From an uncultured Gammaproteobacteria bacterium (GTDB lineage: Bacteria > Pseudomonadota > Gammaproteobacteria > Steroidobacterales > Steroidobacteraceae), in assembly GCA_963710595.1 (NCBI GenBank), contig CAVQAZ010000007.1, positions 36,926 to 100,925 of the forward strand: 64,000 nt of DNA, in the 5' to 3' direction. Below the pieces are notes generated by a model. That model worked only from the letters and a program-made list of their open reading frames with translations. It did no database searches and was not told where the DNA came from. Shown here one piece after another: positions 5,231-22,572 of this stretch (position 1 is its first letter; each line of letters starts with the position of its first letter). The position numbers and the translations under genes were made by a program.

Positions 5231-5256
5231 CTTTAGCCAACCTCCGTGCGACCTGG

Positions 5257-5484: not shown

Positions 5485-6234
5485 CTATTTTCCGAACAAC
5501 GCCTTGATCCGATCCTTCACTTCCGGCTGATGAAAAGTCTGCGCGTGCATCGCCACTTCCAGCTCGGTGGCGCGCGGCAGATCCGCCCGCAGGCCGGCGA
5601 CCATGTGCGCCTTGAGCGTCACCAATGACTGTCGCGGCTTGTCCGCCAGATTCCTCGCGAGCTGATATGCGTACGGCAGTACCTCGCTCCGCGGCAGCAC
5701 CGGAAACGCAATTCCCCGCTCCGCCAGCTGCGCGCCCCGGTAGGTCTCGGCTGTCATCAACAGCTCCTGCGCCAGCGGCAACCCCAGCTTTTCCCGCAGC
5801 ACCAGCGTGGACCCGAAACCCGGCGTGAAGCCGTACTTCATGAAGTTCGTCGTGTAGACACTTTCTCGGCTGAAGATGATGAAGTCGGCAAACAAGCCGA
5901 ACACGAAGCCGCCGCCGATGCCATGACCCTGCATTGCCGCGATCACCGGCACCTCGCAGGCCAGCGGCAGGTTGTAAATGGGATAGTCGGTGAACTTTCC
6001 CTGACCATCGGACAACCCCAGCAACGCCTCCTGCGTGCCACCGGAGCAGAAATACGAGTCGTAGCCGGTGACGATCACGACTTTGCAGTGCTGGTCCCCG
6101 GCGATATTGGCAAAGGCATCCCACAGGCCCGCGCAGATCTCCGCAGAGAATGTGTTCTTGTGGACGCGATCTTCCAATGTGACCTGGACGATGGCCGGCT
6201 CGATTCGCTCGTGACGTACCGCCGGGGTGACCAT
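5485..6234 (-). CDS. pksI: Beta-branching enoyl-CoA hydratase-like decarboxylase ECH2 (PksI-like)
   Basis: Crotonase-fold motifs (EDRVHKNTFS, AMQGHGIGGG, FMKYGFTPGFG); last gene of the HMGS-ECH1-ECH2 run. Confidence 0.9.
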   Translation of the reverse strand: MVTPAVRHERIEPAIVQVTLEDRVHKNTFSAEICAGLWDAFANIAGDQHCKVVIVTGYDSYFCSGGTQEALLGLSDGQGKFTDYPIYNLPLACEVPVIAAMQGHGIGGGFVFGLFADFIIFSRESVYTTNFMKYGFTPGFGSTLVLREKLGLPLAQELLMTAETYRGAQLAERGIAFPVLPRSEVLPYAYQLARNLADKPRQSLVTLKAHMVAGLRADLPRATELEVAMHAQTFHQPEVKDRIKALFGK

Positions 6235-6235
6235 G

Positions 6236-7033
6236 CTAGGTGCGCTCCCAAGGAAACAGACCCGTCTCTACGTAGCGTGTGATGCTGGCGATGTTGGCAG
6301 GATCGCGGAACACTTCCTTGTTGGCCGCGATGGCCGCCGGCCGGTCGGCGACGACCGAGACGCCGAGCCCGTTCACGAGACGTTTGTAGCGCGCGATGGC
6401 CGTTCTGTTGAGCCGTCTCAGCCGGAGCAGATGCTTGCGCAACAGCGCTTCGCTGTTGGCGCCGCTCGCATCCACCAGTCCCCACTGCAGCGCCTGTGAT
6501 ACATCGATGGCATGCGTCATTGCCGTCAGGTAATGCGCCTTCTGAAAACCGACGCGGCGAATCAGGAACGGCAACACGCACGCCGGCACTAGTCCGAACA
6601 GCAGCTCCGAGAGACTGAACACCGCCGTCTCATCCGCGATCACAATGTCGCTCGCAGCGACGAAGCCCATCCCGCCCGCGTTCGTCTTGCCTCGCACATG
6701 CGAGACCACGAAGAACGGTGCCGTCGTCAGACGCAGCCACAAGTCATAAAGAGGTTCCGGTGATGGCTCAGACGCCGGCTGGCCGCCGCCGTTGTTGGCA
6801 ACCGCACGCATTTCCCCGAAATCGGCGCCGAAGCAGAACACGTCCGGCAGGCCCTCCAGCACCAGCACGGTGACGGGCTCATCACAACAACGCTCGATCA
6901 CGGCGGCGCACTCACTGATCAGCTGGCCGTTGATCGTGTTGTTCGCCTCGGGACGATGCAACTGCACGAAGCAGATGCTGTCCTGGAACCGCACCTGCAG
7001 CGTTTCGTAGGTCGTCTGTCGAACCGTGGCCAT
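6236..7033 (-). CDS. pksH: Beta-branching enoyl-CoA hydratase/dehydratase ECH1 (PksH-like)
   Basis: Start reset to ATG 7033 (MATVRQTTYETL), which overlaps the HMGS stop (TGATG). Motifs HRPEANNTIN, FCFGADF, LSELLFGLVPA. Confidence 0.9.
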   Translation of the reverse strand: MATVRQTTYETLQVRFQDSICFVQLHRPEANNTINGQLISECAAVIERCCDEPVTVLVLEGLPDVFCFGADFGEMRAVANNGGGQPASEPSPEPLYDLWLRLTTAPFFVVSHVRGKTNAGGMGFVAASDIVIADETAVFSLSELLFGLVPACVLPFLIRRVGFQKAHYLTAMTHAIDVSQALQWGLVDASGANSEALLRKHLLRLRRLNRTAIARYKRLVNGLGVSVVADRPAAIAANKEVFRDPANIASITRYVETGLFPWERT

Positions 7034-8295
7034 CACGACAACCACTCGTACTCGCGATGGAACTCTTTGATCTCGCGCAGTACCAGCCGCGGTCTGTTCT
7101 TGCCGGCGCGCGCGACCTCGCGACACACCTCGTCTTCCACCTTGACGTTGCGGGTGCCGAACCGCAGCTGGCTGTTGCTCATCAACAAGGAGTCGTATTG
7201 CTGCATCGACAAGGGATAGCGTTCATCGAGTTGCTGCCCGATCTTGCGCCGACGTAGCGCCAACTGCCCCTCCTGATGCGCCACGCCGCTATAAAACTCC
7301 GAGCAGCAGCCCGAGCCGTAGGAGAAACATCCGATGCGGTTGGCGGATTGAAAGTTGCCGTTGTCGATGGTGCTCGCCAGCGACAGCAATGAGGTCGCCC
7401 CCATGATGTTGCCCACCCTGCGGCAATAGGTGAGTCCCGGCACCACGCGCTGGTGAAAATCCGCTTCGATCTCCGCGGGCTTCGCCGCCGTCCACTTGCG
7501 CATCATCGAGCGGTGAGCGCCCTTGATCATGCCGCCGAACGGAGTGTGAAACGCCAGGTACTGAAATGACGTGGCGTAGTCGACGTCACTGACTCTCTTG
7601 CTGTATTCCTGGAACGCATTCTCACAACAGTCGAGGTACGACAGCAGCGACAAATCCGCATCGCCCGCCTCCATGTCCGGCGCCGGACGGCAGGTGTCCA
7701 TCACCTCGTAGCCGTAGTAGCCATTTGCACCGACATCCATTTCGAACACCAGCGGCCGACTGCTAACGAGCACCGCGACAGCGCCGGCGCCCGCACTGGG
7801 CTCCGCGAATGACCAGTCTTGCGTCAACGCGTCGCCGCCCTCGGCGACCATGAAGCGCGAAATATCCGTCGCGACCACCAATGCCTTGGCACCGGGAGAG
7901 ACTTGCGACAGGATGAAGTTCACCGCCATCTGCAAACCCGCAGTTCCGGAGTAGCAGGCTTGTTTTATTTCGAACAGGCGGCAATTGCGATTCAGTTGCA
8001 AGTGGCGGTGCAGGTAAGTGCTGATGGACTTGCCGAAGTCGATGCCGGACTCCGAGCACGCAATGAGCAGCTCGATCCGATCTTTGTCGGCCGGCGGCAG
8101 CGCATCGAGGATGGGCTTCGCGGCATTGACGCCGAAGGTGATCGGGTCCTCATCGGGCAGGGCCACCGTCTTCTCATCCATCAACAGGTTATTGAACCGA
8201 ATCGTGTCCAGTCCGCGATGCTCAGCCAGCTGCCTGACGTTCAAGCAGGCCACGCCGCCGAACACATTCATTGCCTCGATGCCCACGAGTGCCAT
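7033..8295 (-). CDS. pksG: HMG-CoA synthase-like beta-branching enzyme (PksG-like)
   Basis: EIKQACYSGT (catalytic Cys), FHTPFGGM, FSYGSGCCSEFYSG. Confidence 0.93.
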   Translation of the reverse strand: MALVGIEAMNVFGGVACLNVRQLAEHRGLDTIRFNNLLMDEKTVALPDEDPITFGVNAAKPILDALPPADKDRIELLIACSESGIDFGKSISTYLHRHLQLNRNCRLFEIKQACYSGTAGLQMAVNFILSQVSPGAKALVVATDISRFMVAEGGDALTQDWSFAEPSAGAGAVAVLVSSRPLVFEMDVGANGYYGYEVMDTCRPAPDMEAGDADLSLLSYLDCCENAFQEYSKRVSDVDYATSFQYLAFHTPFGGMIKGAHRSMMRKWTAAKPAEIEADFHQRVVPGLTYCRRVGNIMGATSLLSLASTIDNGNFQSANRIGCFSYGSGCCSEFYSGVAHQEGQLALRRRKIGQQLDERYPLSMQQYDSLLMSNSQLRFGTRNVKVEDEVCREVARAGKNRPRLVLREIKEFHREYEWLS

Positions 8296-8661
8296 GCAAA
8301 CGTACTCCAGGTTAGCTGCCGCGTTGCCGACGCAACGTGATGTTCATTGCACTGAATCCCGTGTTGCACGTCAATGCATGCCGGAGCAACGATGCGGCAG
8401 CGCCCGGGCTTACTCAGCGCGAGTCGGCGCCAGGCGCTCTGCTGAATGTTTATTTGCCGACGACACTACAGAGTTTCCAGTGCGGCACGCGCCCATCGGC
8501 CACCGCGAGCAGGAGCACGCAGGCCAGCGGCGTGCTCACCCAAGCCGAATGCATTTTTTGGCGGCCGGAGGCGGGGCCGCGCCGAGCGGCGCGACCGGAC
8601 AGGGCGTCAGACAAACCCGGCGTTACTCGGGATCGTCATGCGGATGCCGGTGATCCCCGTT

Positions 8662-8910
8662 TCACGAGCCGCGCAGTCTTTCGTGCAGCAGATCGGTCAA
8701 TTCGCCGAGATTGCGGGCGCCGAACAGCTCGACGCGGGGAATACGCAGCGCCAGCGACTCCAGCGTCATCGTGACGATCTCCGCACGATCGACTGAATTG
8801 GCACCGAGTGCGGCCAGTTGATCGGAAGGTTTGAAAGAATGGTCCTGCAGCTGTGGCAGCACTTCGCGCGCGTGACCCACGATGACGGCGAATAATGCTT
8901 CTTTGTTCAT
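8662..8910 (-). CDS. acpK: Donor acyl carrier protein for beta-branching (AcpK-like), copy 1
   Basis: 82 aa from MNKEALF; LGANSVDRAEI motif. Confidence 0.88.
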   Translation of the reverse strand: MNKEALFAVIVGHAREVLPQLQDHSFKPSDQLAALGANSVDRAEIVTMTLESLALRIPRVELFGARNLGELTDLLHERLRGS

Positions 8911-8946
8911 GATGCTTCGGCTCCTTGCTGATGCCATGGAATCTCA

Positions 8947-10332
8947 TCAGGTCCACTGACGCGACTGCACAGTGGTTCGTGTACTCGCCTGCGTGGCCAC
9001 CCACTGGTTCAAGTGCTCGGCGGTTCCCTCCAGCAGTCGTCGCGCGATATCCGCCACGTAGCGCTTCTGCCAAGGAAATATTTCCGTGTTTCGCACCCAT
9101 TGATTGAACGCGCCCAGGGCCGGCCCGCAATGGATCTGGTAATCGACTCTCTGCTCCCGCTCACCGCGCAGGGCGAGACGGGTCGAGTGAACGAAATACC
9201 ATTTGAATATCAATGCCATCTTGCGCTTGGGGGACACTTCGATGTCCGCGTTCGGGCGCCGCCTGGCGAGGTAACTGCGCGTTTCCTTCCACACCTCATC
9301 GATGCTGCGCCGGAAATATTTCTCCTCGATCTGACGCAGGATGGCGGGATCGATTTCACCCAGCGAGCCGTGCCGCTGATAGAGCTCGTACAGCCTGTTT
9401 GCCCGGGCCGGGAACAACAACCCTCGTTTCACCACCTGCACCTTGGCACCGAGCTCGAACAGGTCGCCGGCGGGCGCATAGGCAGTGTCTTGCACGTTAA
9501 TCTGTTGCAGTAGCGCCTTCACATCGTCGCTGGTGCCTGCTTCCCGGGTACATTGATTGATCGAACCGGTGAGGATGAAGTCCGCGCCCATCATGAAGGC
9601 GGCAGCCGCCGCATGCGGAGTACCGATGCCGCCGGCGGCACCGACACGAATGCGCCTTTCATAGCCGTGCCGCTCCATCATTTGATCCCGCAACATCATC
9701 ATCGCGGGGAGCAAAGCGTAAGCCACGCCTTGATCCGTATGGCCGCCGGAATCGGCCTCCACGCAAATATCATCGGCAACGGGAATGGCGTGAGCAAGCT
9801 CGGCTTGCAGCTCGGAGATCTGACCGGACGCGAGCAGCGCCTTCACGAGGCTCTGCGGTGCCGGCTGCATGAACGCCGCGGCAATTTCCGGACGCGATAC
9901 TTTGGCGAGCATGCGATGAGCCGAATGCAGCTCGCCCGTCTGGCTGCGACCGATGCCTTGCAAGCGGTAGCGAACCAGGCTCGGTGTGATATTCATGAAG
10001 GCCGCGGCCTCGACATGACGGATGCCATGCGCCAGGTAGAGATCGACGGTGCGCTCCTCCAGGTCCGGCCGCTCGGGATTCGCCAAAAGATTCATTCCAT
10101 AGGGTTCACCGTGCGTGAGCTCCGCTTGGATATGACGGATGGCTGCTGCAACGGCGTCCAACTCGAGCCCACCCGTGCCCAGAAATCCCATCAGCCCCGC
10201 TTTGCCCAGCGCAACGACCATCTCCCTGGATGCGATTCCCTTGTACATGGCGCCAGCCAGATACGCGTACCTGAGCCCATAGTCGGCCTTGAATTGCGCG
10301 TCTCCGAGTGAAGCTGCCGTAATCTGGCGCAT
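8947..10332 (-). CDS. PfaD/FabK-family trans-acting enoyl reductase
   Basis: YLAGAMYKGIAS, VEADSGGHTD, GAAGGIGTP and YQIHCGPALGAFNQW motifs; no AT domain fused. Confidence 0.88.
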   Translation of the reverse strand: MRQITAASLGDAQFKADYGLRYAYLAGAMYKGIASREMVVALGKAGLMGFLGTGGLELDAVAAAIRHIQAELTHGEPYGMNLLANPERPDLEERTVDLYLAHGIRHVEAAAFMNITPSLVRYRLQGIGRSQTGELHSAHRMLAKVSRPEIAAAFMQPAPQSLVKALLASGQISELQAELAHAIPVADDICVEADSGGHTDQGVAYALLPAMMMLRDQMMERHGYERRIRVGAAGGIGTPHAAAAAFMMGADFILTGSINQCTREAGTSDDVKALLQQINVQDTAYAPAGDLFELGAKVQVVKRGLLFPARANRLYELYQRHGSLGEIDPAILRQIEEKYFRRSIDEVWKETRSYLARRRPNADIEVSPKRKMALIFKWYFVHSTRLALRGEREQRVDYQIHCGPALGAFNQWVRNTEIFPWQKRYVADIARRLLEGTAEHLNQWVATQASTRTTVQSRQWT

Positions 10333-10409
10333 GCTTCGTCCTTTGCTGAGCGAGCGGCCCGCGTGGCGACGACCTGCCGGTGCGGAAACTGCGTGCTGCG
10401 CGTCCAGTG

Positions 10410-11651
10410 CTATGTGGAAGTCTCGTCCGCCAGTCCCCAGCGTTCCAATCTCCGAACCAGCAAGCCCAGGAAATGATTTGCGCGTGCGCCGTCCACGACA
10501 CGATGATCCAGCGTGAGGGTCACGTAGCAGCGTGGCCGCACCACGATGCGATCCTCACCTAGCTCGCTAATCACGACGGCGCGCTTCTCCAGCTTGCCCA
10601 CGCCCAGGATGGCCGATTGCGGCTGCTTGATGACGATGGGCGCAGCCAGCAGGCTGCCGCTGACGCCGTGATTGGAAATCGTGAATGTGCCGCCGCTCAC
10701 GTCCGCCGGTAGCAGCCGGCCCTCACGCGCACACCTCACTAACCTGCTCAGTTCACTCGCGATTGCGAACAGATCCAGCGTCCGCACATTGCGGATCACC
10801 GGCACGAGGAGTCCCCTGCCCGCCACGGCCGTGGCAACGCCGATGTCCACTGTGTCGTGCATCAACAGGGCATCCGGTAGCCAGCGACTGTTGATCTCCG
10901 GCACTTCGGTCAGCGCGGCGGCACTCGCTGCGAGAAAATAGGCGGTGAGCGTCAGTGCGGCACCCCGCCGTTCGAACTGCGCACGATGCTTTTCTCGATG
11001 TGCCAACACTGCGGTCAGATCGACTTCGAACACGGTGGTCACATGAGGCGCCGTGCGTAGCAAACTCTCGACCATGAGATCAGCAGTCCGCAGCCGCGTC
11101 GTCGAGTGTGGGACGCGCCGACTAGCCGGCTGCGCCTGTGCGTTCGCGACCGCAGTCTCGGGGCTCGCGCTACGATTCGCTACATATGCGAGCACATCAG
11201 CAACCGTCACTCTCCCACCCACTCCGCTGCCGCGAAGCTCCTCGGAATCGATCGAATGTTCCTTGAGCAGACGGCGAACCGCGGGGCTGTGACGTGCCGA
11301 ATTCGGCATCCCCAGGTGAGCGGACCACGCAGCGGCGCGACTCGATCCAGCAGGCTTTGCGGCACTTTCGTCGAGTGCGCCGCTCGCCAGCTGCGCCGTT
11401 TGCATCTGCTCGGTCTGAATGAACGCCAGCACCTCTCCCGGCACAATGTCTTCACGTGCCTGCTTGAGCACCCGCTGCAGCACCCCGCTGGCCGGTGCCG
11501 GAATCTCTACGACAACCTTGTCAGTCTCCACTTCGATCAGCGGTTCGTCCCGGGTGACGGGTTCGCCCACCATCTTCAGCCAGCGCTGCAACTGCGAGCG
11601 CGTCCCTTCGGACTGCTCACACGGCGCGCACACTGCAATCATCGCTGTCAT
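10410..11651 (-). CDS. 2-oxoacid dehydrogenase E2 (dihydrolipoamide acyltransferase)
   Basis: Start reset to ATG 11651. Lipoyl motif EVETDKV, binding domain HSPAVRRL, catalytic LDHRVVDG. Confidence 0.88.
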   Translation of the reverse strand: MTAMIAVCAPCEQSEGTRSQLQRWLKMVGEPVTRDEPLIEVETDKVVVEIPAPASGVLQRVLKQAREDIVPGEVLAFIQTEQMQTAQLASGALDESAAKPAGSSRAAAWSAHLGMPNSARHSPAVRRLLKEHSIDSEELRGSGVGGRVTVADVLAYVANRSASPETAVANAQAQPASRRVPHSTTRLRTADLMVESLLRTAPHVTTVFEVDLTAVLAHREKHRAQFERRGAALTLTAYFLAASAAALTEVPEINSRWLPDALLMHDTVDIGVATAVAGRGLLVPVIRNVRTLDLFAIASELSRLVRCAREGRLLPADVSGGTFTISNHGVSGSLLAAPIVIKQPQSAILGVGKLEKRAVVISELGEDRIVVRPRCYVTLTLDHRVVDGARANHFLGLLVRRLERWGLADETST

Positions 11652-11655
11652 TGAT

Positions 11656-13755
11656 TCAAAAGCTCGCCGTTTGTTCGATGGCCTGCATGATGCGCGCGAC
11701 GCTGGGCACCACCGAATCGAGCAGCACGGGGCTGTGCGGGCTCGGCACATCCGGCATGGTGATGCGGTCGATGGGTGCATCGAGATCGAAGAACACTTCC
11801 TTGGTGAGCGTGGCCGCAATCTCGGCGCCGAAGCCGGCCGTGAGATTGTCCTCGTGCACGATGAGGCAACGGCGCGTCTTGCGAACCGAAGCGATCACCG
11901 CATCACGGTCCCACGGAATCAGCGTACGAAGGTCGAGCACTTCCACATCGAGCTCGGACTGATAAGCCGCGGCTTCGCAGCGCTCGACCATGGCGCCCCA
12001 GGAAACAATGGTCAGTTGAGTACCGACTTGTGCGATCTTTGCTTGCCCGAAGGGCACGATAAAGTGATCTCCCGGATAGGGACGCCGTGCCCAGGCGGCA
12101 TCCAGCATGGCGCGGTGCTCGAAAAAAATCGTCGGATCATTGCCGCGCAATGCCGAGCGCAACAGGCCGACAGCATCCTCGGCGTTCGACGGCATGGCCA
12201 CGCGCCAACCGATGGCGTGCGCGAACTGCACTTCGTTGCTCTGGCTGTGCCAGGGATCGCCGGACTTGGAAAAGCCGCCCGGCATGCGCACTACCATGGG
12301 TGCGGCAAAGCGGTTGGCGGTGCGCCATCGCAGCGTGCCGCAATCGTTGAGCTGCTCGGTCGCCGGATCGGCGTACTTGCGGAACTGAATCTCCGGCACT
12401 GGCATCAGACCGGCTAACGCCATGCCCACCGCCCGGCCGATGATTCCTTCTTCGGACAGGCTGGTATCGAACACGCGCGCTTCGCCGAATTTTTCCTGCA
12501 GTCCCACAGTGGCGGCGTGCACGCCGCCTTTACGGCCCACATCTTCGCCGAACACCACGACGCGGGGATTGACGGCAAGCTCATGCTCGAGCGTGCGGCG
12601 GATCGCTGTGAGCATGTTTATTCGCGGCCCACTGGGTTGCGGCACCGATACTCCCAGCAACGGCTGCACGCCGTCGGCCAGCATTCCGCCCTGCTCCTGC
12701 ACTTCCACCGAACCATCGGGGAGATGCTCACTGAATGAAAAGCGTACGGTGGTCTGGGCATCCGGTTCCGCGCGCTGCTCCACTCGAGCCAGCGCCTGCT
12801 CCACTTCCTCGCTAGCACGCTGCTGCAACAGTGCCCATGCCTCGGCCGATATCACCCGCGGCACCAACTGCTCACGCAATCTCGGAAGCGGATCGCGCTC
12901 CAGTTCGGCGGCGATCTCCTGTGGCGATCTATATGCCTGGGTGTCCTGACCCGAATGGCCAGCGAGGCGCGGAACCTGGATGCGCAGCAGCGCCGGCCCC
13001 TGCCCGCGCCGCACGACTTCGACAGCATGCTGAATCTGCGAGGCAGTGCCGCTGGGATCGCGGCTATCAGCTTCAAGGATGCGCAGGTTACGAAACGAAC
13101 CGAGATTGGCGGCGATGTTGCCGCCGGGAGTCTGCAGGTCCGACTTCACCGAAATGCCATAGCCGTTGTCTTCGATGAAGAACAGCACCGGCAGCCGCTG
13201 AGTTGCCGCAATGGTGAGCGCCGCCCAGAAGCCGTTGGTGGCCACCAACCCGTCGCCGCCATGGGCCACCGCGATGCTGTCCGCCCACTGGGACTCCTGC
13301 AGCGTGTTCGTTCTATAAACAATCGCCTGGGCCCAGCCAACCACCTGCGTGTATTGCGCGCCCACGCCACCACAGGCGGGCAACACGCAGGCGCCATCCC
13401 GTCGTGGCAAGTTGAATACGACGCCGATGTCGCGACCCTGGCTGACGCTGCCCACGCGCATCATGGTCGAAGCCAGCGCATCCTCCGTAGTCAGTCCCAA
13501 CGAAAGCAGCAGAGGACGCGAGCGGTAGTAGACACCCACACCGTCGCGCGCGCCGGTGAGCATCTGGCCGAGGATTGCCTGCGTCACGTCGTGACCACGC
13601 GCAGTGAATTGATAAATAATCTTGCGTTCCGGCAGCAGCCGCGATTCTTCGAGCGCGTCCAGCGCGCGAGAGAGCAGCACCGAATACACGACCTGGGACC
13701 AATCAATCCGCGTGGAGCCGCTGGGCGCCGCACTTTCCAGAACCACTGCCGACAT
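11656..13755 (-). CDS. Fused E1 alpha/beta ThDP-dependent 2-oxoacid dehydrogenase (branched-chain type)
   Basis: Start MSAVVL (ATG 13755, GAGGTG upstream). ThDP motif GDG...EDN; beta-part motifs FGEDVG, FDTSLSEEGIIG, PEIQF. Confidence 0.88.
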   Translation of the reverse strand: MSAVVLESAAPSGSTRIDWSQVVYSVLLSRALDALEESRLLPERKIIYQFTARGHDVTQAILGQMLTGARDGVGVYYRSRPLLLSLGLTTEDALASTMMRVGSVSQGRDIGVVFNLPRRDGACVLPACGGVGAQYTQVVGWAQAIVYRTNTLQESQWADSIAVAHGGDGLVATNGFWAALTIAATQRLPVLFFIEDNGYGISVKSDLQTPGGNIAANLGSFRNLRILEADSRDPSGTASQIQHAVEVVRRGQGPALLRIQVPRLAGHSGQDTQAYRSPQEIAAELERDPLPRLREQLVPRVISAEAWALLQQRASEEVEQALARVEQRAEPDAQTTVRFSFSEHLPDGSVEVQEQGGMLADGVQPLLGVSVPQPSGPRINMLTAIRRTLEHELAVNPRVVVFGEDVGRKGGVHAATVGLQEKFGEARVFDTSLSEEGIIGRAVGMALAGLMPVPEIQFRKYADPATEQLNDCGTLRWRTANRFAAPMVVRMPGGFSKSGDPWHSQSNEVQFAHAIGWRVAMPSNAEDAVGLLRSALRGNDPTIFFEHRAMLDAAWARRPYPGDHFIVPFGQAKIAQVGTQLTIVSWGAMVERCEAAAYQSELDVEVLDLRTLIPWDRDAVIASVRKTRRCLIVHEDNLTAGFGAEIAATLTKEVFFDLDAPIDRITMPDVPSPHSPVLLDSVVPSVARIMQAIEQTASF

Positions 13756-13942
13756 TGCTTCACCTCGTGTTCGAAGGCGCAACGAGCTCCGAGCTTAATC
13801 AGCTACCTCGGAGTGAAGCGCTGGATTTCTCCATACCACCGCAGCGGCCGGTCACCCAAAAACCCGACAGCAACAGCACCAACACTGCCTCGATCAATAC
13901 CGATGCGTCCAGCTCGCGCCGGTGTCAAAGCAACAAGCCTAG

Positions 13943-14052
13943 GGAAGCTCTGATTAATCGACTGCCCTGAGCTCAGCAAGCTTGCAACTGACTGAAATGC
14001 TTCATCGATCGAAGTTGATATGCGCGACGCATGGCAATTGATCAGAGATTCC
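13943..14052. mobile_element. 110-bp MITE-like inverted-repeat element, copy 2
   Basis: Same terminal inverted repeats as copy 1, flanked by a perfect CTAG direct repeat (13939-13942 and 14053-14056). The right CTAG contains the stop codon of the ParB-like gene. Confidence 0.65.
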
Positions 14053-14943
14053 CTAGGATGCCGTGTCGATATTTCTGCGGCGGTGCGCCGCCTGCGTCGT
14101 GATGTTTGCATGCAGCACCGACTGGCCATCGAGAATCTTCGCCACTTCGTGCTGAATGCGCTCCTGAACTTCATCGGTGGCCACTTCTATGGGCAGGGTC
14201 ATGGCTATCAAACTGCGGTGCTGCCTGATCCGCAGGATGGGTACTCCGCCCTCGCTCCTGATGACCCGTTCGGCAGCCTGTAATTTCTTTTTGCGGCCCC
14301 GGCGCGCCGGGGTCAGCAGCTGGCGAAAGACCTCACCGGCGGCCGGACGCGGCCTCGCTCCAATCTCGCGCGCGCGTTGAATAATGGACTTTCTGCGACC
14401 CGGGTCTTGAATGGCGTCGTCGATATCCAGGCCCCATCGTTCACAAATGTCGGTACCGCTTTCGAACGCGCCGACGATGACGCTCGGCAGACGCGCGAGC
14501 CTGATCAGGCGCGACACCTGCGATGTGGAAATCTTCAATGCCTTGGCGATGTCCTCCTGCGAGCTGAAGTGGCCGGCCCGCAGCCAACGCGCATAACACA
14601 TGCCTCGCTCGTAAGGGCTCAGGTCCTTGCGTTTGTGATTCTCCGTATCGAGCGCGATCACCGCCTCCTTGTCCGACAGATCGCGCAATTCGGCCAGCAG
14701 CGGTCGGTTCAGAAAACGCGCGACGAACAGCCGGCGCGCGCCATAAATCAACTCGATGTCGTGCTCCGGATCGTTCTGCAAGCGCCGCCCGAGCACAGGA
14801 ATAAGCTGCCCGTGTTCAAGAAAGCTCTTGATCTCATCCTCGCAGGTTGCTTCATTGACGCTGCTGTCGATCCGATCGTGGCCCTTCCAGAGGCGACAGC
14901 GCACAGGGTTCACCGAAACAATCGTCCGATTCTCATCGACCAT
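14053..14943 (-). CDS. ParB/RepB/Spo0J-like protein 1
   Basis: GQLIPVLGR, YGARRLFVA and ENHKRKDL motifs of the ParB N-terminal domain, then HTH SQEDIAKALKISTSQVSRL. Confidence 0.85.
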   Translation of the reverse strand: MVDENRTIVSVNPVRCRLWKGHDRIDSSVNEATCEDEIKSFLEHGQLIPVLGRRLQNDPEHDIELIYGARRLFVARFLNRPLLAELRDLSDKEAVIALDTENHKRKDLSPYERGMCYARWLRAGHFSSQEDIAKALKISTSQVSRLIRLARLPSVIVGAFESGTDICERWGLDIDDAIQDPGRRKSIIQRAREIGARPRPAAGEVFRQLLTPARRGRKKKLQAAERVIRSEGGVPILRIRQHRSLIAMTLPIEVATDEVQERIQHEVAKILDGQSVLHANITTQAAHRRRNIDTAS

Positions 14944-15099
14944 AGATCCTCACTCTCTATTCCATGGAGCATGGATTCTCGCCCCGCGATGTGACGTCGG
15001 CGTTGCAACAAACCACACTGGCATGTGCGGCTGCTGGACACGCCGCAGGTGCTCGCGGCGCGCATTCGCGTCACGAGCACCTGATGCTTGCTACATCTT

Positions 15100-15987
15100 T
15101 CAGGTTTGTAAACCGGAGTAGTAGGACGACGATGCGTTGGGGTGATCGATATATCGGGCTGTGCGCCGCGTGCTCAGGTCCCGCACGATGCGCAGGACGG
15201 CATCCTCAATTCGCTCGAGCGCTTCTTCTGATACTCTGTCGGCGGGAAACAGCAGAGTGAACGCGCGAGACTGGCGCCTGACTCGAAACAGCGCGCTTCC
15301 GCTCGCACCGGTGACGGTTTCTTCGCACGATCTGCCGCTGCGCCGTCGATCCCACGCGACGCTCTGCAGGAGTCTTTGGTAAATCTCGAGCACCGGAGGG
15401 CGTGGAGTCATCCCGCGGATTTCATTCGCGACGCGGCTGAGCAGCGGGCGCTTCTCAACGTCTTCCCACATCTCCACCAACTCCAGTCCCCATCTTTCAC
15501 GCATGTCGGCCGGATTGGCGAATGCGCTCACGATGCTGCTCGGCAGCTGGGCGAGTCGCAGTAGTCTCGACACTTGCGAGTTGGAGAGATGTAAGGCACG
15601 CGCCAAATCTTCCCGTGACTTGAAGTATTCCGCGCTCAACCATCGAGCGCAGCTGCGCCCCCGCTCATAGGGGCTGATGTCCCGGCGCTGGCGGTTCTCG
15701 ATATCCATCGCGATGATCCCGTCGCGATCGGAGATGTCCTGCAGCTCAACCGCGAGCGGCATGTTGAGATGCCGTGCAACGAACAGGCGACGCGCACCAT
15801 AGATCAGCTCGACCTCATACACGGGATCGCCTTTCAAGCGCCGCCCCCGAGTTGGAATCAGTTGCCCCTCCTTGAGGAAGCTTTCGATCTCGACCTTGCA
15901 GGTTTCCTCGGTGATCTCCGTGTCAAGCCGCTCGTGCAAATCCCACATACGGCATCGAAACGGGTTCACCAGACTGAGCTCGCTCAT
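15100..15987 (-). CDS. ParB/RepB/Spo0J-like protein 2
   Basis: Start reset to MSELSLVNPF (AAGGAG upstream). GQLIPTRGR, YGARRLFVA, ENRQRRDI, then HTH SREDLARALHLSNSQVSRL. Confidence 0.85.
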   Translation of the reverse strand: MSELSLVNPFRCRMWDLHERLDTEITEETCKVEIESFLKEGQLIPTRGRRLKGDPVYEVELIYGARRLFVARHLNMPLAVELQDISDRDGIIAMDIENRQRRDISPYERGRSCARWLSAEYFKSREDLARALHLSNSQVSRLLRLAQLPSSIVSAFANPADMRERWGLELVEMWEDVEKRPLLSRVANEIRGMTPRPPVLEIYQRLLQSVAWDRRRSGRSCEETVTGASGSALFRVRRQSRAFTLLFPADRVSEEALERIEDAVLRIVRDLSTRRTARYIDHPNASSSYYSGLQT

Positions 15988-16331
15988 TTCAAACTCTCCT
16001 TTTTCGCAACCCCGGCCGCCTCCCGCAGCCGAGCCTTCCGCAGCATGCTGTGTTTTGACCCCCGCTCTCGCCACTCGCTCACTTCAGCTTTTTTTAAACA
16101 AGCAATGCGCCGCCTGCCCTACGCCGACATTCAGAAACATCTGCTCATGCGCATAGCGACATCTTTTTGTTCCATGCACACCGTCAAATCCGCAACAATG
16201 CATGAAGGCGGTCAACACCCATCCGGGCACCGAATCCAACATCTTGGCACGATACGTCTGCCACGCGTACGACACGCGAGACCCGGGACTGAATCGTCGC
16301 ACCCCATTGGATAGATCCGCCGTCACTGTGA

Positions 16332-17573
16332 CTAGTCATCAATGGACACGTTGCGCAGACAAATCGCGGTGTTGATGCCGCCAAAACCTATGCTCAGGTT
16401 CAGGGCGTTGCGAATCGTGCGCGCCAGCGGCTCTTGCCGCACCCAATTCAGCTCCGGCTTGAGGGGTTCCTGCAGATTTCGACTGGGATGCAGGAACCGG
16501 CTCCTCATCTGCAGCAACGTGGCGATGATCTCAACGGTGCCGGCGGCGCTGAATCCATGGCCCACGATCGACTTGGTCGCGTTGATATGCGCATGCGACA
16601 GCCCGGCGGCCATGATCGCGCTCGCCTCAATCTCATCGCCCATCCAGGAGCCGGTGCCGTGTGGATTGACATAGTCGATGTCGCGGGGCTCGAGCCCTGC
16701 GCGTCTCAAGGCGTTGTCAATCACCCTGATTTCACCGGCGAGCGACGGATCGGGGTTGCGATGTGCATCCATCACCGTCGCTGAGCCGGTCAGCACCGCG
16801 TACGGCTTGACGCGATTCCTGCTGACGGCCGACAGGCGTTCCACCACCACGGCGCCACAGCACTCACCAAAAATGAAGCCATCCCGTCCCTTGTCGAAAG
16901 GCCGGCAAGCCAACTCCGGACGATCCGCGTAGCGATCGCTTCCCATCGCACCTGTCGCGCGCAGAGCGTGGCACTCCCAGTACGACAGATCCATGAGGGC
17001 GCCGACGGCGATACAGACGTCTACTTGTTGTGATTGCACGGCTTGGACGGCCTGCAGTATGGATAGCTGACCACTTGCGCATGCCGCACCGACGGTGTAC
17101 GCGAAGCCGCGTATGTTGAACTGTTCCGTGCACCAACCGCACAGATCACTATCCAGGAAGGCAACCCCATAGCTGGGCCGCAGGAAGCGCATGCGCGCTG
17201 AGTGCTCCTCATGAATTCGCGTGAGCTCGCGCTGTTGACAGTTCGACCCGCCGATAATGAGGCCGATTCGATACGGATCGACGGAGTCGAGGTTGGCGTC
17301 CTGCCAAGCCTCATGCACAGTCATCATCGCCGCCTGCGCGGACAGCGAAGCTGAGCGCTGCGCGCGTGATGAAAGCGCTGCCGGCAACTTGAGCTCCGGC
17401 AACTCGGCGCCGATGAATGCGGAATCCTTCTGCCTTCCGGGACGCTGCATGACGCGAAAAGCATGGCGCCCTTCCTTGAGCGCCGCTTCGAATGCTCGAC
17501 GGCCCTGACCCACCGCGGTGAGTACACCGACGCCAGTGATCGCTACATCAGTAGAAGCGTCTTTCCTCTCCAT
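16332..17573 (-). CDS. Stand-alone KS of the beta-branching (PksF-like) family, retaining the active-site Cys
   Basis: YTVGAACASGQ (TGC at 17079-17081), NPHGTGS, KSIVGH; clear paralog of 19860..21074. Confidence 0.88.
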   Translation of the reverse strand: MERKDASTDVAITGVGVLTAVGQGRRAFEAALKEGRHAFRVMQRPGRQKDSAFIGAELPELKLPAALSSRAQRSASLSAQAAMMTVHEAWQDANLDSVDPYRIGLIIGGSNCQQRELTRIHEEHSARMRFLRPSYGVAFLDSDLCGWCTEQFNIRGFAYTVGAACASGQLSILQAVQAVQSQQVDVCIAVGALMDLSYWECHALRATGAMGSDRYADRPELACRPFDKGRDGFIFGECCGAVVVERLSAVSRNRVKPYAVLTGSATVMDAHRNPDPSLAGEIRVIDNALRRAGLEPRDIDYVNPHGTGSWMGDEIEASAIMAAGLSHAHINATKSIVGHGFSAAGTVEIIATLLQMRSRFLHPSRNLQEPLKPELNWVRQEPLARTIRNALNLSIGFGGINTAICLRNVSIDD

Positions 17574-17716
17574 GGGTACATCCTTGCTGCGTGCGGAGTC
17601 ATCTAACGATGCCGCCCGGCGCGACGTTCATGCAACGCATTTCGAGAACGGGATACGCGACGGTCGATGCTTGCTCGCAACGACCGATCGCGTATCCGCT
17701 GCCGATGCTCGAAGTC

Positions 17717-18907
17717 CTACTCCAGAACTTTCGACACCACACCCGCACCCACGGTCTTGCCGCCTTCGCGAATCGCAAAACGCGATCCGTCCTCCATCGC
17801 GATCGGCGCGATCAACTCGACCGCCATCTTGACGTTGTCGCCGGGCATCACCATTTCCACGCCCTCCGGCAGCTCCACCGCGCCGGTTACATCCGTGGTA
17901 CGGAAGTAGAACTGCGGGCGATAGCCTTTGAAGAACGGCGTGTGGCGCCCACCCTCCTCCTTGGTCAGCACATACACTTCGGCCTCGAACTTCGTGTGCG
18001 GCTTGATCGAACCGGGCTTCGCCAGCACCTGCCCACGCTCGACCTCTTCGCGTTTGGTACCGCGCAGAAGTACGCCCACGTTGTCGCCCGCCTGACCTTC
18101 ATCCAGCAGCTTGCGGAACATCTCAACGCCCGTGCATATGGTCTTCGTCGTGGGCCGCAACCCCACGATCTCCACCTCGTCGTTCACCTTGAGAATGCCG
18201 CGCTCGATACGTCCGGTGGCAACCGTGCCCCGCCCGGAAATGGAGAACACATCCTCAACGTGCATTAGAAACGGCTTGTCGATCTCACGCGGCGGCGTGG
18301 GAATATAACGGTCCATTTCCTGCACCAGCTTGACCACCGAGGGCACGCCGATTTCGCTCGTGTCGCCTTCCAGCGCCTTGAGCGCCGAGCCCTTCACGAT
18401 CGGCGTCGCGTCGCCAGGGAAGTCGTACTTCGACAGCAGCTCGCGCACTTCCATATCCACCAGTTCCAGCAGCTCCGCGTCGTCCACCATGTCCGCCTTG
18501 TTCAGGTACACCACGATGTACGGCACGCCCACCTGGCGAGCCAGCAAAATGTGCTCGCGCGTCTGCGGCATCGGGCCGTCAGCTGCGGAAACCACTAGAA
18601 TCGCTCCATCCATCTGCGCGGCGCCCGTGATCATGTTCTTCACATAGTCGGCATGCCCCGGACAGTCGACATGCGCGTAGTGGCGGTTCGCACTCTGGTA
18701 CTCCACGTGCGCCGTAGCGATCGTGATCCCGCGCGCTTTCTCTTCCGGCGCCTTGTCGATCTGATCGTAGGCCATGAATGTACCGCCGTGCGTCTCGGCC
18801 ATGACCTTGGTCAAGGCCGCGGTCAACGTCGTCTTGCCGTGATCCACGTGTCCGATCGTGCCGACGTTCACGTGCGGCTTGGTGCGCTCAAACTTGTTCT
18901 TCGCCAT
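17717..18907 (-). CDS. tuf: Elongation factor Tu, paralog outside its normal genomic context
   Basis: 396 aa, [28 protein letters not shown]; full length and no frameshift. No fusA/rps or tRNA/secE neighbours. Confidence 0.98.
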
Positions 18908-18971
18908 GGTCGTTTCCTATTTGAGATAAGGGGTAATCGTTAGAGGTAGAGGCTCGAGCCGCGAGCCGTCG

Positions 18972-19415
18972 TCATTGCACATTTCCCGTTTCGACCACCT
19001 GGGAAATGAGCTCGAGCAGACTGGCGCTCCACCGCGGGCCGCCGAACACAACCACCTTCAATTCGTTGCGCTCCTGGTCATACATCGACTCCAATCGCAC
19101 TGGCTCCTCGTCGCGTCGCTCCGCTCTCACGGCGCCCATCAGCACCGTGGTCAGCCGATCCGCGGCGCCGCGGCTGAGCGCTTCGATCCGCACCACGGTG
19201 GACACAGAGACGCGTCCGTGACTGCTGACCGCGTTCGGATCGAACTCCACCACCGGACGGCCCAGCAAAGCTTCGATATCTTCCTTCGCGATTCGGTATT
19301 GCTTGCCAATGCGCTTGGCCCGCAACCGCCCGACTCTCACGTAGTTGCGAACCGTTTTGACATGCAACTTCAAGAGATCGGCGACTTGATCAATGGAATA
19401 CAATTCCTGTGCCAT
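18972..19415 (-). CDS. Excisionase/MerR-like (HTH_17-type) DNA-binding regulator with C-terminal domain
   Basis: MAQELYSIDQVADLLKLHVKTVRNYVRVGRLRAKRIGKQYRI; alternative ATG at 19430. Confidence 0.8.
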   Translation of the reverse strand: MAQELYSIDQVADLLKLHVKTVRNYVRVGRLRAKRIGKQYRIAKEDIEALLGRPVVEFDPNAVSSHGRVSVSTVVRIEALSRGAADRLTTVLMGAVRAERRDEEPVRLESMYDQERNELKVVVFGGPRWSASLLELISQVVETGNVQ

Positions 19416-19445
19416 CGTACCAACCCTCATTGGGATGAAAACGGA

Positions 19446-19496
19446 CCTATTTATACCTATCGCTCCCTATTAGTCAATAGCACTGGGAGCGATAGG
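19446..19496 (-). promoter_or_regulatory. Sigma70-like promoter with overlapping operator repeats for the HTH-tuf unit
   Basis: Minus strand TTGACT (19477-19472), 16 nt, TATAAA (19455-19450). Perfect 12-bp inverted repeat CCTATCGCTCCC (19456-19467) / GGGAGCGATAGG (19485-19496). CCTAT at 19446, 19456 and 19466. Confidence 0.7.
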
Positions 19497-19624
19497 GAAT
19501 TTAAAGGAGTTGACGCTGGACGATTGCGGGGACGTGGCCGCTTGGAAAGAGCGTGGTCAAGAGGCGGTCCCCGCGTGCTCCAGACTGCAGGCCGCGCTGT
19601 GTGTTCAGCGGCGCCCCGCGGGGC

Positions 19625-19843
19625 TCACGGCCTTACTTTGGAGGCGGCCAGGAGTGCGAAGCGCACATTGGCCCGCATCCAGCGAATCAGAACAAGTTTG
19701 TCGATGCCGAGTCGCTCCGCGAGCTCAGCCACCGTGCATGCGCAGCCATCAGGGAGATCGCGCACAGCTGCCTCTATCGACGCTTGCGGAGGATCGGGAA
19801 CTGGCTCATTTCCAGCCAATGTATCCATGGATGCCATGTACAC
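19625..19843 (-). CDS. Small hypothetical protein with possible HTH
   Basis: Directly after the KS stop, AAGGGAG upstream of ATG 19837; TVAELAERLGIDKLVLIRW looks HTH-like. Confidence 0.4.
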   Translation of the reverse strand: MYMASMDTLAGNEPVPDPPQASIEAAVRDLPDGCACTVAELAERLGIDKLVLIRWMRANVRFALLAASKVRP

Positions 19844-19859
19844 GTACTCCCTTACGGTA

Positions 19860-21074
19860 CTAGTACTTTTGTAGACACAGCGCTGTGTTTATTCCACCAA
19901 ATCCCATGCTGAGCGTTAGTGCATTCACCATCGGATGCGCGACGGGTTGCTCTCGCACCCAGTTGAACGATGGATCAATGGGGTGATCGAGGTTGCGCGT
20001 GGCATGTAATCGGCCCGCCCGCATCTGCAGTAGCGTCGCGATCACTTCGACAGCGCCGGCAGCCGACAACCCATGCCCGATGATCGACTTGGTCGCATTC
20101 AAACGAGCCTGCGTGAGCTGTGTGGCACGCAGCGCGCTCAGCTCGGTTTCATCACCCACGACCGATCCCGTCCCGTGCGGATTGACGTAGTCGATGTCCT
20201 TCGACGCGCATCCCGCTCGCCGCAGCGCGCTGACGATCACCTTGATCTCCCCTTCCAACGAGGGATTCGGGTTGCGATTCGCATCGATGGCGACACCCCA
20301 CCCGGAGACGCGCGCGTAGGGAGTCATGCCGGAGCGCGGGCGCGCGTCGGCCCTCTCGATCACGACAGCGCCACAACACTCTCCATAAATGAAACCGTCA
20401 TGGTCCCGATCGAAAGGCCGCGAAGCGTGCTGCGGCTCACTCGCGTAGCGGTCTGAACCCATGGCGCCGAGGGAGCGAAATCCCTGGCATTCCCAATGAG
20501 ACAGATCCATCAGCGCTCCGAGAGCGATGCAGATATCGACCTGCTCGCACAACACCGCTTGCATCGCCTGGATGATGGCGAGTTGCCCGCTCGCCGAAGC
20601 TCCCCCCACGGTGTAGGCCAGCCCCTGGATGCCGAACTGCTCGGTGCACAAACCGCACAGGTCCGTGTCCATGAACGACAGGCCGTAGGTCGGACGCAGG
20701 AACTGCGTTCGTTCCGAGTACGCCTCGTATGTTTGCACCTGGCTGCGCTGCTGAAGGTTCGAACCGCCGATGATCAATCCGATCCGCGTCGGGTCCGCAT
20801 CACTCAGGCGCGCGTCACTCCATGCCTCGTGCAGCGTGACCAACCCCGCCTGCGCTGTGAGCGACGCATTTCTGAGGTGCTGCGGCGAAATGCCCGGAGG
20901 CATGCCCATTGACGGAATCTCCGCGCCGAGAAAGTTCGAAGCTTTTTGCCTTCCCGGCCGCTGCATGACACCGAATGCATTGGGCGCTTCGAACAGCGCT
21001 CGCGAGAACGCCTGCGCTCCTTGCCCGATCGCCGAGGTGACGCCGACGCCGGTAATAATCACTTCAGGCCGCAT
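19860..21074 (-). CDS. pksF: Beta-branching decarboxylating KS (Cys to Ser), PksF-like
   Basis: YTVGGASASGQ (TCG at 20595-20597), NPHGTGS, KSIIGH. Start at ATG 21074 or GTG 21086, overlapping the ACP end. Confidence 0.9.
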   Translation of the reverse strand: MRPEVIITGVGVTSAIGQGAQAFSRALFEAPNAFGVMQRPGRQKASNFLGAEIPSMGMPPGISPQHLRNASLTAQAGLVTLHEAWSDARLSDADPTRIGLIIGGSNLQQRSQVQTYEAYSERTQFLRPTYGLSFMDTDLCGLCTEQFGIQGLAYTVGGASASGQLAIIQAMQAVLCEQVDICIALGALMDLSHWECQGFRSLGAMGSDRYASEPQHASRPFDRDHDGFIYGECCGAVVIERADARPRSGMTPYARVSGWGVAIDANRNPNPSLEGEIKVIVSALRRAGCASKDIDYVNPHGTGSVVGDETELSALRATQLTQARLNATKSIIGHGLSAAGAVEVIATLLQMRAGRLHATRNLDHPIDPSFNWVREQPVAHPMVNALTLSMGFGGINTALCLQKY

Positions 21075-21312
21075 GGAACTTTTCACGCAGCAGATCCGCC
21101 AGTCCGCCGATGCTTTCCGGCCCGAACGCCTCGTGGCGGGGCATGTCGAGCGACAGCTCCCCTAGCACCAGCGTGATGATCTCGGCGCGATCGACGGAGT
21201 CGGCGCCGAGCGACTGCAGCCGGTCGCTGTCGATGAAAGCATGATATTGCAAATCCGGCACGACCTCCTGGGTGTACCGGACAATCAGCTCGAAGATGTT
21301 TTGTCTGTTCAT
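21064..21312 (-). CDS. acpK: Donor acyl carrier protein (AcpK-like), copy 2
   Basis: 82 aa from MNRQNIFELI; LGADSVDRAEI motif. Confidence 0.88.
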   Translation of the reverse strand: MNRQNIFELIVRYTQEVVPDLQYHAFIDSDRLQSLGADSVDRAEIITLVLGELSLDMPRHEAFGPESIGGLADLLREKFHAA

Positions 21313-21374: not shown

Positions 21375-22277
21375 CTAGTTCCCGGATGTGCGCAGTTCTC
21401 GAGCCGCCGCCGGTTCCGCATCCTGCCGGATCTGCTGCACCAGACGCGTCAGCACGTTTCCCGGACCAATCTCCTTGAACTCCGTCACGCCGCGCGCGAG
21501 CAAAAAGCGAATGGTTCGTGTCCATTGCACCGGGCTCTTGATCTGATCGGCGAGCCCGGCCTTGATCGCGGACGAGTGATCGCTCGGATAGGGCGCAGCG
21601 TTCACGTTTGCAATCACCGGGACCCGCGCCGCTGAGAAAGGTATCGGCGCGATGAATTCATTGAACGTTTGCGCCACATCGCTCATGTACCGGGAGTGAA
21701 ACGCGGCGCTCACCTGCAACGGCATGTACATGCTCGCGCCGGCTTCCTCGAACAACGGAGCCGAGCGTTGGATGTCTGGCACCGGCCCGGAGATCACGAT
21801 CTGCTTGGGCGCATTGAAGTTCGCCACGTCAACGCCGCTCAGGCGATTCTCCGCGAGCACTCGCGCGACCTGGTCGGCATCCAACCCGACTACCGCCGCC
21901 ATGGCGCCGTTTCTCATTCGCGCCATGAGCTCGCCGCGTTTGATCACCAGGCGCAACCCGGTGAGAAAATCGAAGACTCCCGCCACGAGCAACGCGTTGT
22001 ATTCGCCGAGACTGTGTCCCGCGACGTAGCTGGGATGCGCGCCCTGACTCAATGCTTTGTAGTAGTACAGCGCGTTGACCACATAGAGACTGGGCTGAGT
22101 ATGTTGAGTCTGCTTCAGCTTGTTGTCCGGATCTTCCAGACAGAGTTTGCGCATCGAGTATCCCAACAGCTCATCGACGCTCTTCTCCACAGAGGTGAAC
22201 TCGCGCACCTCGTCAAACAATTGCTGACCCATGCCTCGATATTGAGAACCCTGGCCCGGGAACAAAAACGCGATCAC
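21375..22277 (-). CDS. Trans-acting malonyl-CoA:ACP acyltransferase (FabD/PksC-like)
   Basis: GTG 22277 after AAAGGAGG; FPGQGSQ, GHSLGE, AFHS (malonyl-type). Confidence 0.92.
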   Translation of the reverse strand: MIAFLFPGQGSQYRGMGQQLFDEVREFTSVEKSVDELLGYSMRKLCLEDPDNKLKQTQHTQPSLYVVNALYYYKALSQGAHPSYVAGHSLGEYNALLVAGVFDFLTGLRLVIKRGELMARMRNGAMAAVVGLDADQVARVLAENRLSGVDVANFNAPKQIVISGPVPDIQRSAPLFEEAGASMYMPLQVSAAFHSRYMSDVAQTFNEFIAPIPFSAARVPVIANVNAAPYPSDHSSAIKAGLADQIKSPVQWTRTIRFLLARGVTEFKEIGPGNVLTRLVQQIRQDAEPAAARELRTSGN

Positions 22278-22572
22278 TTCACACCTCCTTTGGTTGCGGC
22301 GCGCATGTTGCTGCATTTCCGGTCACACGTCCCGCGCCTTCCTTGTCCTGCAATGTTTGTACTCGAGTTACTCAATGTCGACCAGTGGAACTGCCTGGTC
22401 GAGCCGCAACGGCTCGCGATCGTTGTGATCACATGCCAAGCACACGGGCCGCAACGTGACTCGAATGTCCTCTTGCAAAGTTACATGGAAACAAAACCGA
22501 TCTATTGGGAATCGCCAGCCCCATCGCTCCCGGCTAAGGACATTGGCGATGCGACGAGACAATCACAGTGCA

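Follow-up and report, generated by a model that had tools for sequence, protein, structure and literature searches.

The ketosynthases (KSs) of the beta-branching cassettes of polyketide synthases (PKSs), such as PksF, CurC, MupG, TaK and BonF (written KS-S or KS0), are malonyl-ACP decarboxylases; they carry Ser at the position of the catalytic Cys, keep both catalytic His residues and are encoded together with an AcpK-type acyl carrier protein (ACP), an HMG-ACP synthase (HMGS) and the enzymes ECH1 and ECH2. The myxovirescin system has two donor ACPs and two HMGSs (TaB/TaC and TaE/TaF) served by one KS, TaK. The KSQ loading domains and chain-length factors (CLFs) found at the head of assembly lines have Gln in place of the Cys, and the condensing enzymes FabB and FabF (KAS I/II), including the KS-alpha subunits of type II PKSs, have a Cys-His-His triad. 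In beta-ketoacyl-ACP synthases (KASs), a Gln, Ser or Ala in place of the Cys uncouples the decarboxylation of malonyl groups from condensation, while the Cys form decarboxylates efficiently only once acylated and then condenses.

We analyzed a 64,000-nucleotide stretch of DNA (the window, C7:36926-100925) from the 7.9-Mb, nine-contig assembly of an uncultured member of the Steroidobacteraceae. Its polyketide gene cluster encodes two KSs of the cassette family, one with the usual Ser (KS-Ser) and one with Cys at the same position (KS-Cys), and these are the only two PksF-like KSs in the entire genome. Our comparisons place KS-Cys in a derived subfamily that is under selection, and they suggest that this enzyme probably joins carbon units again to make a special precursor and is not redundant. 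Every gene discussed as part of this finding is on the minus strand. A first reading of the window (below, the original prediction) had reported two AcpK-like ACPs, two PksF-like KSs with the motifs GAACASG and GGASASG and a complete Cys-His-His triad in the KS at 16332-17573; the coordinates, the motifs and the triad (C165, H305 and H339) were all recovered. The genes of the two KSs and of the beta-branching set are the following.

16332-17573, minus strand: KS-Cys, PksF-lineage ketosynthase with Cys165 (TGC, 17079-17081), His305 and His339 (NF005490, motif)
19860-21074, minus strand: KS-Ser, canonical PksF-type malonyl-ACP decarboxylase (GGASASG, Ser codon TCG; NF005490, motif)
21064-21312, minus strand: ACP-A, discrete donor-type ACP with the motif GADS (NF005502, 100.9 bits, cut-off 79)
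8662-8910, minus strand: ACP-B, second discrete donor-type ACP, with the motif GANS (NF005502, 118.9 bits, cut-off 79)
7033-8295, minus strand: HMGS, the sole copy in the genome (domain and family models)
6236-7030, minus strand: ECH1, PksH-type dehydratase, start approximate (NF005498, 387 bits, cut-off 250)
5485-6234, minus strand: ECH2, PksI-type decarboxylase (NF005496, 361.5 bits, cut-off 215)

A cysteine-bearing clade within the PksF family

Both KSs pass the NCBIfam model for PksF-type enzymes (NF005490, cut-off 445), KS-Cys with 610.6 bits and KS-Ser with 623.2 bits, and the two are 62% identical over 400 aa without a gap. Both are far under the cut-offs of the FabF/FabB models (for KS-Cys, TIGR03150, 233.6 bits against 493.75; NF005935, 173.8 against 630). 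KS-Cys, which has 413 aa, shares the triad with the FabB/FabF enzymes; at about 30% identity and 233.6 bits against the cut-off of 493.75, however, its descent is from the decarboxylase family and not from FabF. Its active site reads TVGAACASGQ, both His motifs (NPHGTGS and VGHGF) are kept and the triad is accompanied by K334. The active site of KS-Ser reads VGGASASGQ, with the codon TCG at the equivalent place, and both catalytic His residues are also kept. KS-Ser matches the described cassette KSs in all respects that we tested, including the Cys-to-Ser replacement and the overlap with its ACP gene, whose stop extends 11 nt past the KS-Ser start. KS-Cys, in contrast, lacks the replacement and is not contiguous with a cassette: here as in the relatives, tuf is on one side of it and the ParB-like genes are on the other, HMGS is 8 kb away, and it adjoins neither an ACP nor an HMGS gene. 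By sequence, KS-Cys is a member of the PksF lineage and not of the PksF functional class as this is defined.

A search for Cys-bearing PksF homologs and their neighbors returned a small clade with two gene arrangements. Among the 120 nearest homologs in a search of 5.8 billion protein clusters, 115 have Ser; the remaining five, which have Cys, are the query itself and the four sequences nearest to it (87, 72, 70 and 70% identity). Ser was also present in all 16 readable PksF-like loci of the GTDB species genomes, a scan that gave no Cys-type relative beyond the genome of the window itself, and wherever the motif was readable in the discrete representatives (39-58% identity) of a 1.84-billion-protein library. 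Scanning the DNA of JGI metagenomes for the pattern T-V-G-[AG]-A-C-A-S-G-Q yielded four further Cys-type genes, and one more was found on a contig, L042, reached through the E1 gene described below. The clade comprises about ten sequences, metagenome loci included, of which five are in our tree.

In the maximum-likelihood tree the Cys sequences are monophyletic (SH-aLRT 92) and nested within the Ser family. Their sister is a Ser-bearing sequence, P0011 (joint support 95), and because the P0011 locus is a canonical ACP-KS-HMGS-ECH1-ECH2 cassette, the Cys is a reversion from a cassette decarboxylase. The KS-Ser of the window falls in another subclade than KS-Cys and has its own orthologs at 84-85% identity, which rules out a recent duplication of the KS inside the cluster. 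Four alignment positions alone set the Cys clade apart, namely S165C, L341F, N271H and L86V. L341F is two residues past the second catalytic His, and H271, which within the PksF family is shared only with the Ser-bearing sister P0011, is matched in the alignment by the His in the DAHH loop of a condensing enzyme, Thermus FabF, so that KS-Cys has the His of this DAxH loop in common with it. A sequencing error is ruled out, since about ten independent sequences share the TGC codon and, with it, the markers H271 and F341.

Both KS genes are constrained. In three Steroidobacteraceae-type cluster variants, dN/dS is 0.10-0.14 for KS-Cys (at dS 0.5-0.7) and 0.14-0.16 for KS-Ser, an equal constraint; these values indicate that both copies are under purifying selection and that neither is decaying. 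Judged from these comparisons, the Cys marks a derived and selected subfamily, far from what chance or drift would lead one to expect.

Gene surroundings of the cysteine clade

The remaining genes of the cluster, against which the relatives of KS-Cys were compared, are listed below.

21375-22316, minus strand: trans-acting malonyl-CoA:ACP acyltransferase (AT) of the FabD type (Pfam Acyl_transf_1; TIGR00128, 337 bits, cut-off 261)
18972-19430, minus strand: HTH_17/excisionase-type DNA-binding protein (Pfam PF12728, TIGR01764)
17717-18907, minus strand: tuf, third EF-Tu copy, likely a self-resistance gene (TIGR00485, 755.7 bits)
15100-15987, minus strand: ParB-like protein 1 (SopB_HTH domain)
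14053-14943, minus strand: ParB-like protein 2 (SopB_HTH domain)
11656-13755, minus strand: fused alpha/beta E1 of a 2-oxoacid dehydrogenase, paralog of the housekeeping branched-chain enzyme (domain, homology)
10410-11642, minus strand: E2 lipoyl acyltransferase, start approximate (Biotin_lipoyl, E3_binding and 2-oxoacid_dh domains)
8947-10332, minus strand: PfaD-type trans enoylreductase, ER (TIGR02814, 686.8 bits; Pfam NMO and FabD_helical_ins)
3-4088, minus strand: start of the trans-AT PKS (acyl-CoA-synthetase-like A domain, ACP, KS and further domains), which runs past the window

The first trans-AT PKS gene begins 1.4 kb beyond ECH2, from 4088 downwards. A promoter and terminator scan returned nothing useful.

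In the first arrangement, type A, which comprises the window, L004, L042 and the P0007 contig, two ParB-like genes trail KS-Cys. The order tuf, KS-Cys, ParB, ParB, E1, E2 is found in three close variants (the window, L004 and L042), and in the latter two the C-terminus of EF-Tu lies just upstream of KS-Cys. The 72%-identical relative has KS-Cys followed by ParB and ParB with a different upstream gene. L042 reads from the end of tuf through KS-Cys, ParB, ParB, E1, E2, an AT (AT2), ER, HMGS and ECH1 to ECH2. L051, a contig from the same metagenome sample, reads AT1, ACP, KS-Ser (85% identity) and the helix-turn-helix (HTH) gene, and the two contigs were read together as one cluster variant; thus at least one related variant keeps both KSs. 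The KS-Ser orthologs at 84-85% identity are those of L051 and L052, the latter covering the KS-Ser side only, and the order AT-ACP-KS-HTH is kept, with the HTH_17 gene conserved after KS-Ser in both.

The second arrangement, type B (L001, L003, L055, L058, L060 and L062), is recurrent in soil metagenomes. Here a FabD-type AT and a PksI-type ECH2 precede KS-Cys, which is followed directly by the first gene of a cis-AT PKS whose loading part consists of a BioC-like methyltransferase (MT), an AT and an ACP with the unusual motif GL(R/S)S. L060 lacks the MT-AT part, and its KS reading frame continues into the PKS, giving a fused protein. No HMGS was seen at the type B loci within the available DNA. 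In its place at the head of the assembly line, directly upstream of it in type B and fused at one locus, KS-Cys resembles the KSQ loading domains and CLFs as a KS-fold protein; unlike these, it has the nucleophile restored, which predicts the opposite change of activity. No type keeps the ACP-KS-HMGS position of the sister, and on this comparison the gene left the cassette after the Ser-to-Cys switch. The positions of KS-Cys in types A and B are both at the start of the pathway.

The donor side of the cassette differs between variants. Both ACPs of the window pass the AcpK-type model NF005502 and have the phosphopantetheine Ser, and they are 49% identical to each other. ACP-A, encoded directly before KS-Ser, shares 82% identity with the ACP encoded ahead of the L051 KS-Ser; ACP-B, encoded directly before HMGS, is 56% identical to this L051 protein. 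In L042 the gap between ER and HMGS is 75 nt, and an ACP motif was found in no frame of this 12.8-kb contig. Between ACP-B and HMGS the window has a non-coding spacer of 366 nt (8296-8661) that is unique in the genome. ACP-B and this spacer look like an insertion in the window or a deletion in the L042 lineage. Since the variant formed by L051 and L042 keeps both KSs without ACP-B, the function of KS-Cys appears to be independent of ACP-B.

The original prediction had described a doubled donor system with one HMGS and one ECH pair in the window, had drawn an analogy to myxovirescin and had raised the possibility of a second HMGS further along the contig. The single HMGS and the single ECH1/ECH2 pair now extend to the whole 7.9-Mb genome, which leaves no second HMGS. 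The doubling holds in so far as two donor ACPs and two KSs are present; it does not hold as a conserved system, given that ACP-B is not conserved, that there is one HMGS and that the KSs are not recent duplicates. As in myxovirescin there are two discrete donor-type ACPs, one of them directly before HMGS, but the window has one HMGS instead of two and two KSs instead of one, a close variant of the cluster lacks the second ACP, and nothing points to a methylmalonyl-specific AT. The analogy breaks down at the second HMGS that defines the myxovirescin system.

Possible functions of KS-Cys

A function of KS-Cys other than plain malonyl-ACP decarboxylation is likely. The reading that we favor, and that we hold to be evenly poised between right and wrong, is that KS-Cys was neofunctionalized from a cassette malonyl-ACP decarboxylase and now acts as a condensing enzyme in the synthesis of a short beta-ketoacyl-ACP precursor. 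The Cys has been restored, a residue next to a catalytic His has changed, the gene has left the cassette and a Ser copy has been kept, which suggests that KS-Cys is competent for condensation again. Its positions, in type A by the acyl-CoA-generating E1/E2 pair and in type B directly before a loading module, point to the building of a precursor or starter. Cys165 would be acylated by a short acyl group, whose most likely source would be the branched acyl-CoA from the co-conserved E1/E2 paralog, with acetyl as the alternative. His305 and His339 would then decarboxylate a malonyl group on a donor-type discrete ACP loaded by the trans-acting AT, and a Claisen condensation would give the beta-ketoacyl-ACP. 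The product might be a chain starter, or it might be a free-standing acceptor for the single set of HMGS, ECH1 and ECH2, together with ER. KS-Ser and ACP-A would keep their ordinary job of providing acetyl-ACP for HMGS. Condensation, the identity of the primer, the ACP used and the fate of the product are all inferred from sequence. The original prediction had proposed that the Cys-bearing KS may elongate or trans-acylate to make a longer donor unit, for a non-methyl branch or a starter; the Cys is real, conserved and selected and the starter-type surroundings are compatible with that idea, while two kinds of branch are not indicated.

Several points weigh against condensation. Our literature searches turned up neither a Cys-bearing KS of the PksF or cassette family nor biochemistry for any member of the Cys clade. 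After a long past as a decarboxylase the acyl-binding pocket may have been lost, and L341F introduces a bulkier side chain; the consequence could be that only acetyl serves as primer, or that the Cys is not acylated at all. A loading module (A-ACP) is already part of the PKS, so a separately made starter may not be needed, and we identified neither a thioesterase nor a transferase for passing the product on. The link to E1/E2 is one of gene order only. Finally, no second, Ser-type KS was seen in up to 13 kb at the type B loci, where the Cys enzyme could be the ordinary cassette decarboxylase.

This last observation is also among those that speak for the best of the alternatives, which we nevertheless regard as unlikely: that KS-Cys is still only a malonyl- or methylmalonyl-ACP decarboxylase, now for the second donor ACP, so that two donor pools would supply one HMGS. 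The genome does encode two donor-type ACPs along with two KSs, the one ACP directly before HMGS and the other directly before KS-Ser, and in type B a Cys KS accompanied by ECH2, with no Ser KS in the available DNA, might do the ordinary job. The variant of L051 and L042, however, keeps both KSs, under equal constraint, without ACP-B. There is a single HMGS in the genome, the only trans-AT is of the FabD/malonyl type and, as described next, only one visible module has an unreduced beta-keto group; moreover, reversion of the Ser, changes in the active site and departure from the cassette would be unexpected if the job had remained the same.

The first PKS protein (9009 aa) has the domain order A-ACP-KS-KR-ACP-KS-ACP-KS-DH-ACP-KS-DH-KR-ACP-KS-KR-MT-ACP-KS-KR-ACP-KS, and the second begins KR-ACP-KS-DH-KR-ACP-KS. 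Module 2 (KS-ACP, without reductive domains) alone retains a beta-keto group in the visible PKS and would be the single visible candidate acceptor for beta-branching; with one such module in view, two kinds of beta-branch are not indicated. The visible PKS has no tandem ACPs. A Trp has been described as a flag of acceptor ACPs (PMC10006238); here one is found near the flag position in one ACP only, in a KR-containing module, and it is uninformative for the acceptor ACPs. All nine complete, alignable modular KSs are Cys-His-His, and on these nine readable sequences we rejected the idea that KS-Cys acts in trans as a stand-in for a dead modular KS. At the contig end, C7:1-3549 and C7:4273-6997 are 98% identical to C7:25884-29705, which is inside the first PKS gene, and within these copies, outside the window and upstream of its base 1, a KS is frame-shifted near C7:6820. 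The region C7:1-7000 is either a recent module duplication or a contig-end assembly artefact. The PKS runs off the contig, in which neither a thioesterase nor a true end of the PKS was seen. Because of the copies and the frame-shifted KS, the end of the PKS as assembled is unreliable and does not fix the number of branch sites.

A second alternative, rather improbable in our judgment, treats KS-Cys and KS-Ser as a pair resembling the KS/CLF of type II systems, in which KS-Ser would make acetyl-ACP and KS-Cys would condense it to acetoacetyl-ACP, with HMGS, ECH1, ECH2 and ER giving a 3-methylbutyryl-type (isoprenoid-like) unit on a free ACP. At least two type A variants (the window, and L051 with L042) retain both KSs together, all the enzymes for the route from acetoacetyl through HMG and methylcrotonyl to isovaleryl are encoded, the trans-ER being in the operon, and both KSs match, weakly, the model of the heterodimeric cispentacin enzyme AmcF. 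Such a pair is difficult to reconcile with type B, which has KS-Cys without a visible Ser partner, and with the report that the cassette KS BonF is monomeric (PMC12560621), and it would duplicate a unit that the E1/E2 paralog could supply from leucine. Least of all do we believe that KS-Cys is non-biosynthetic, as a passenger or as part of a resistance or regulation module together with tuf and the two ParB-like genes: these four genes keep their order (tuf, KS-Cys, ParB, ParB), KS-Cys-ParB-ParB recurs behind a different gene in the 72%-identical relative and a recombinase and a PIN gene flank a related cluster, yet the catalytic set is intact at a dN/dS of about 0.1, the sister subgroup lies in purely biosynthetic surroundings and the ParB homologs precede large biosynthesis-type genes, which fits regulators at the head of an operon and not partners of a KS.

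Neighboring genes and meaning of the clade

The genome has a second fused E1 on contig C9, which is 73-82% identical to the cluster copy. Close homologs of this E1 carry the names Steroidobacter, Povalibacter or Steroidobacteraceae, which makes this family the most likely one for the organism, and in a Steroidobacter genome the ortholog is in an AsnC-E1-E2 arrangement that is typical of branched-chain 2-oxoacid catabolism. E1 and E2 reach no equivalog cut-off, and the E2 ortholog in L042 has 410 aa. By homology, the E1 and E2 of the cluster are an extra copy of the housekeeping branched-chain enzyme. We rejected the view that they are housekeeping bystanders, as the other copy is on C9 and the pair is conserved inside related clusters. 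The housekeeping fused E1 (C9:1564852-1566944) is read in three different frames, which points to assembly indels or to a broken gene; if it is truly broken, the E1 of the cluster would be the sole intact copy.

The ParB-like proteins belong to a large family (969 matches at E <= 1e-10, mostly from metagenomes). In two long contigs a ParB homolog (L053, 8001-8891; L054, 8001-8900) immediately precedes a very large gene that belongs to a biosynthesis-type operon, and one of these genes encodes a protein of 2228 aa and is followed by HTS and CmlA-like genes. The ParB-like proteins may be a candidate class of cluster regulators positioned at the head of operons. With a family of this size whose members precede large biosynthesis-type genes, a role as enzymatic partners of KS-Cys is less likely.

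The EF-Tu of the cluster is 90% identical to both housekeeping copies, which are on contig C6, and is retained in L004 and L042. It is probably a self-resistance gene, which would predict a polyketide directed at EF-Tu; our literature searches gave nothing specific on trans-AT clusters with EF-Tu. Between the tuf stop and the KS-Cys start, at 17640-17690 of the window, there is a near-perfect inverted repeat of 16-17 bp (GGATACGCGATCGGTCG ... CGACCGTCGCGTATCC). It is without a T run and could form an RNA hairpin or bind a protein. Two direct repeats of 121 nt, 94% identical, are found at 5252-5372, upstream of the PKS, and at 13938-14058, upstream of the block from E1 to ECH2. As cluster-specific regulatory sites they were rejected, being copies of a dispersed element that occurs at least 35 times genome-wide.

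The variants also differ in their content, with AT1 and AT2 in one and a single AT in the other, and with ACP-B present or absent. The AT of the window is the ortholog of AT2 of L042 (66% identity) and not of AT1 of L051 (25%), and L042 has its AT at a position where the window has none. Just upstream of AT-ACP-KS-Ser in L051, a serine recombinase and a PIN-domain gene occupy 1574-3174, which suggests a position of this related cluster on the border of a mobile island.

The replacement of Cys by Ser is treated as the hallmark of the KSs of beta-branching cassettes and as a criterion for their annotation, and here a conserved clade undoes that change. The clade is a natural experiment in the interconversion of decarboxylase and condensing enzyme within the KS fold, and it is a warning that not every PksF homolog should be annotated as a decarboxylase. 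KS-Cys is a small, soluble target, and a simple assay on two small ACPs would tell decarboxylation from condensation. If it builds an unusual starter or acceptor, it would be a portable tool to engineer the start of polyketides. A far-reaching version of the favored reading, which we offer as a doubtful proposal, is that cassette decarboxylases reverted to a condensing enzyme and thereby founded a new start of polyketide chains: an acyl group from the 2-oxoacid dehydrogenase or, in type B, a BioC-type methylated malonyl would be condensed on a free donor-type ACP and branched off-line by HMGS and the ECH enzymes, in what is probably the cluster of a new EF-Tu inhibitor in a Gram-negative soil bacterium. 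If this is true, a branched starter would be made by beta-branching chemistry ahead of the assembly line. The role of KS-Cys is in any case needed for predicting the product of this cluster with its own copy of EF-Tu.

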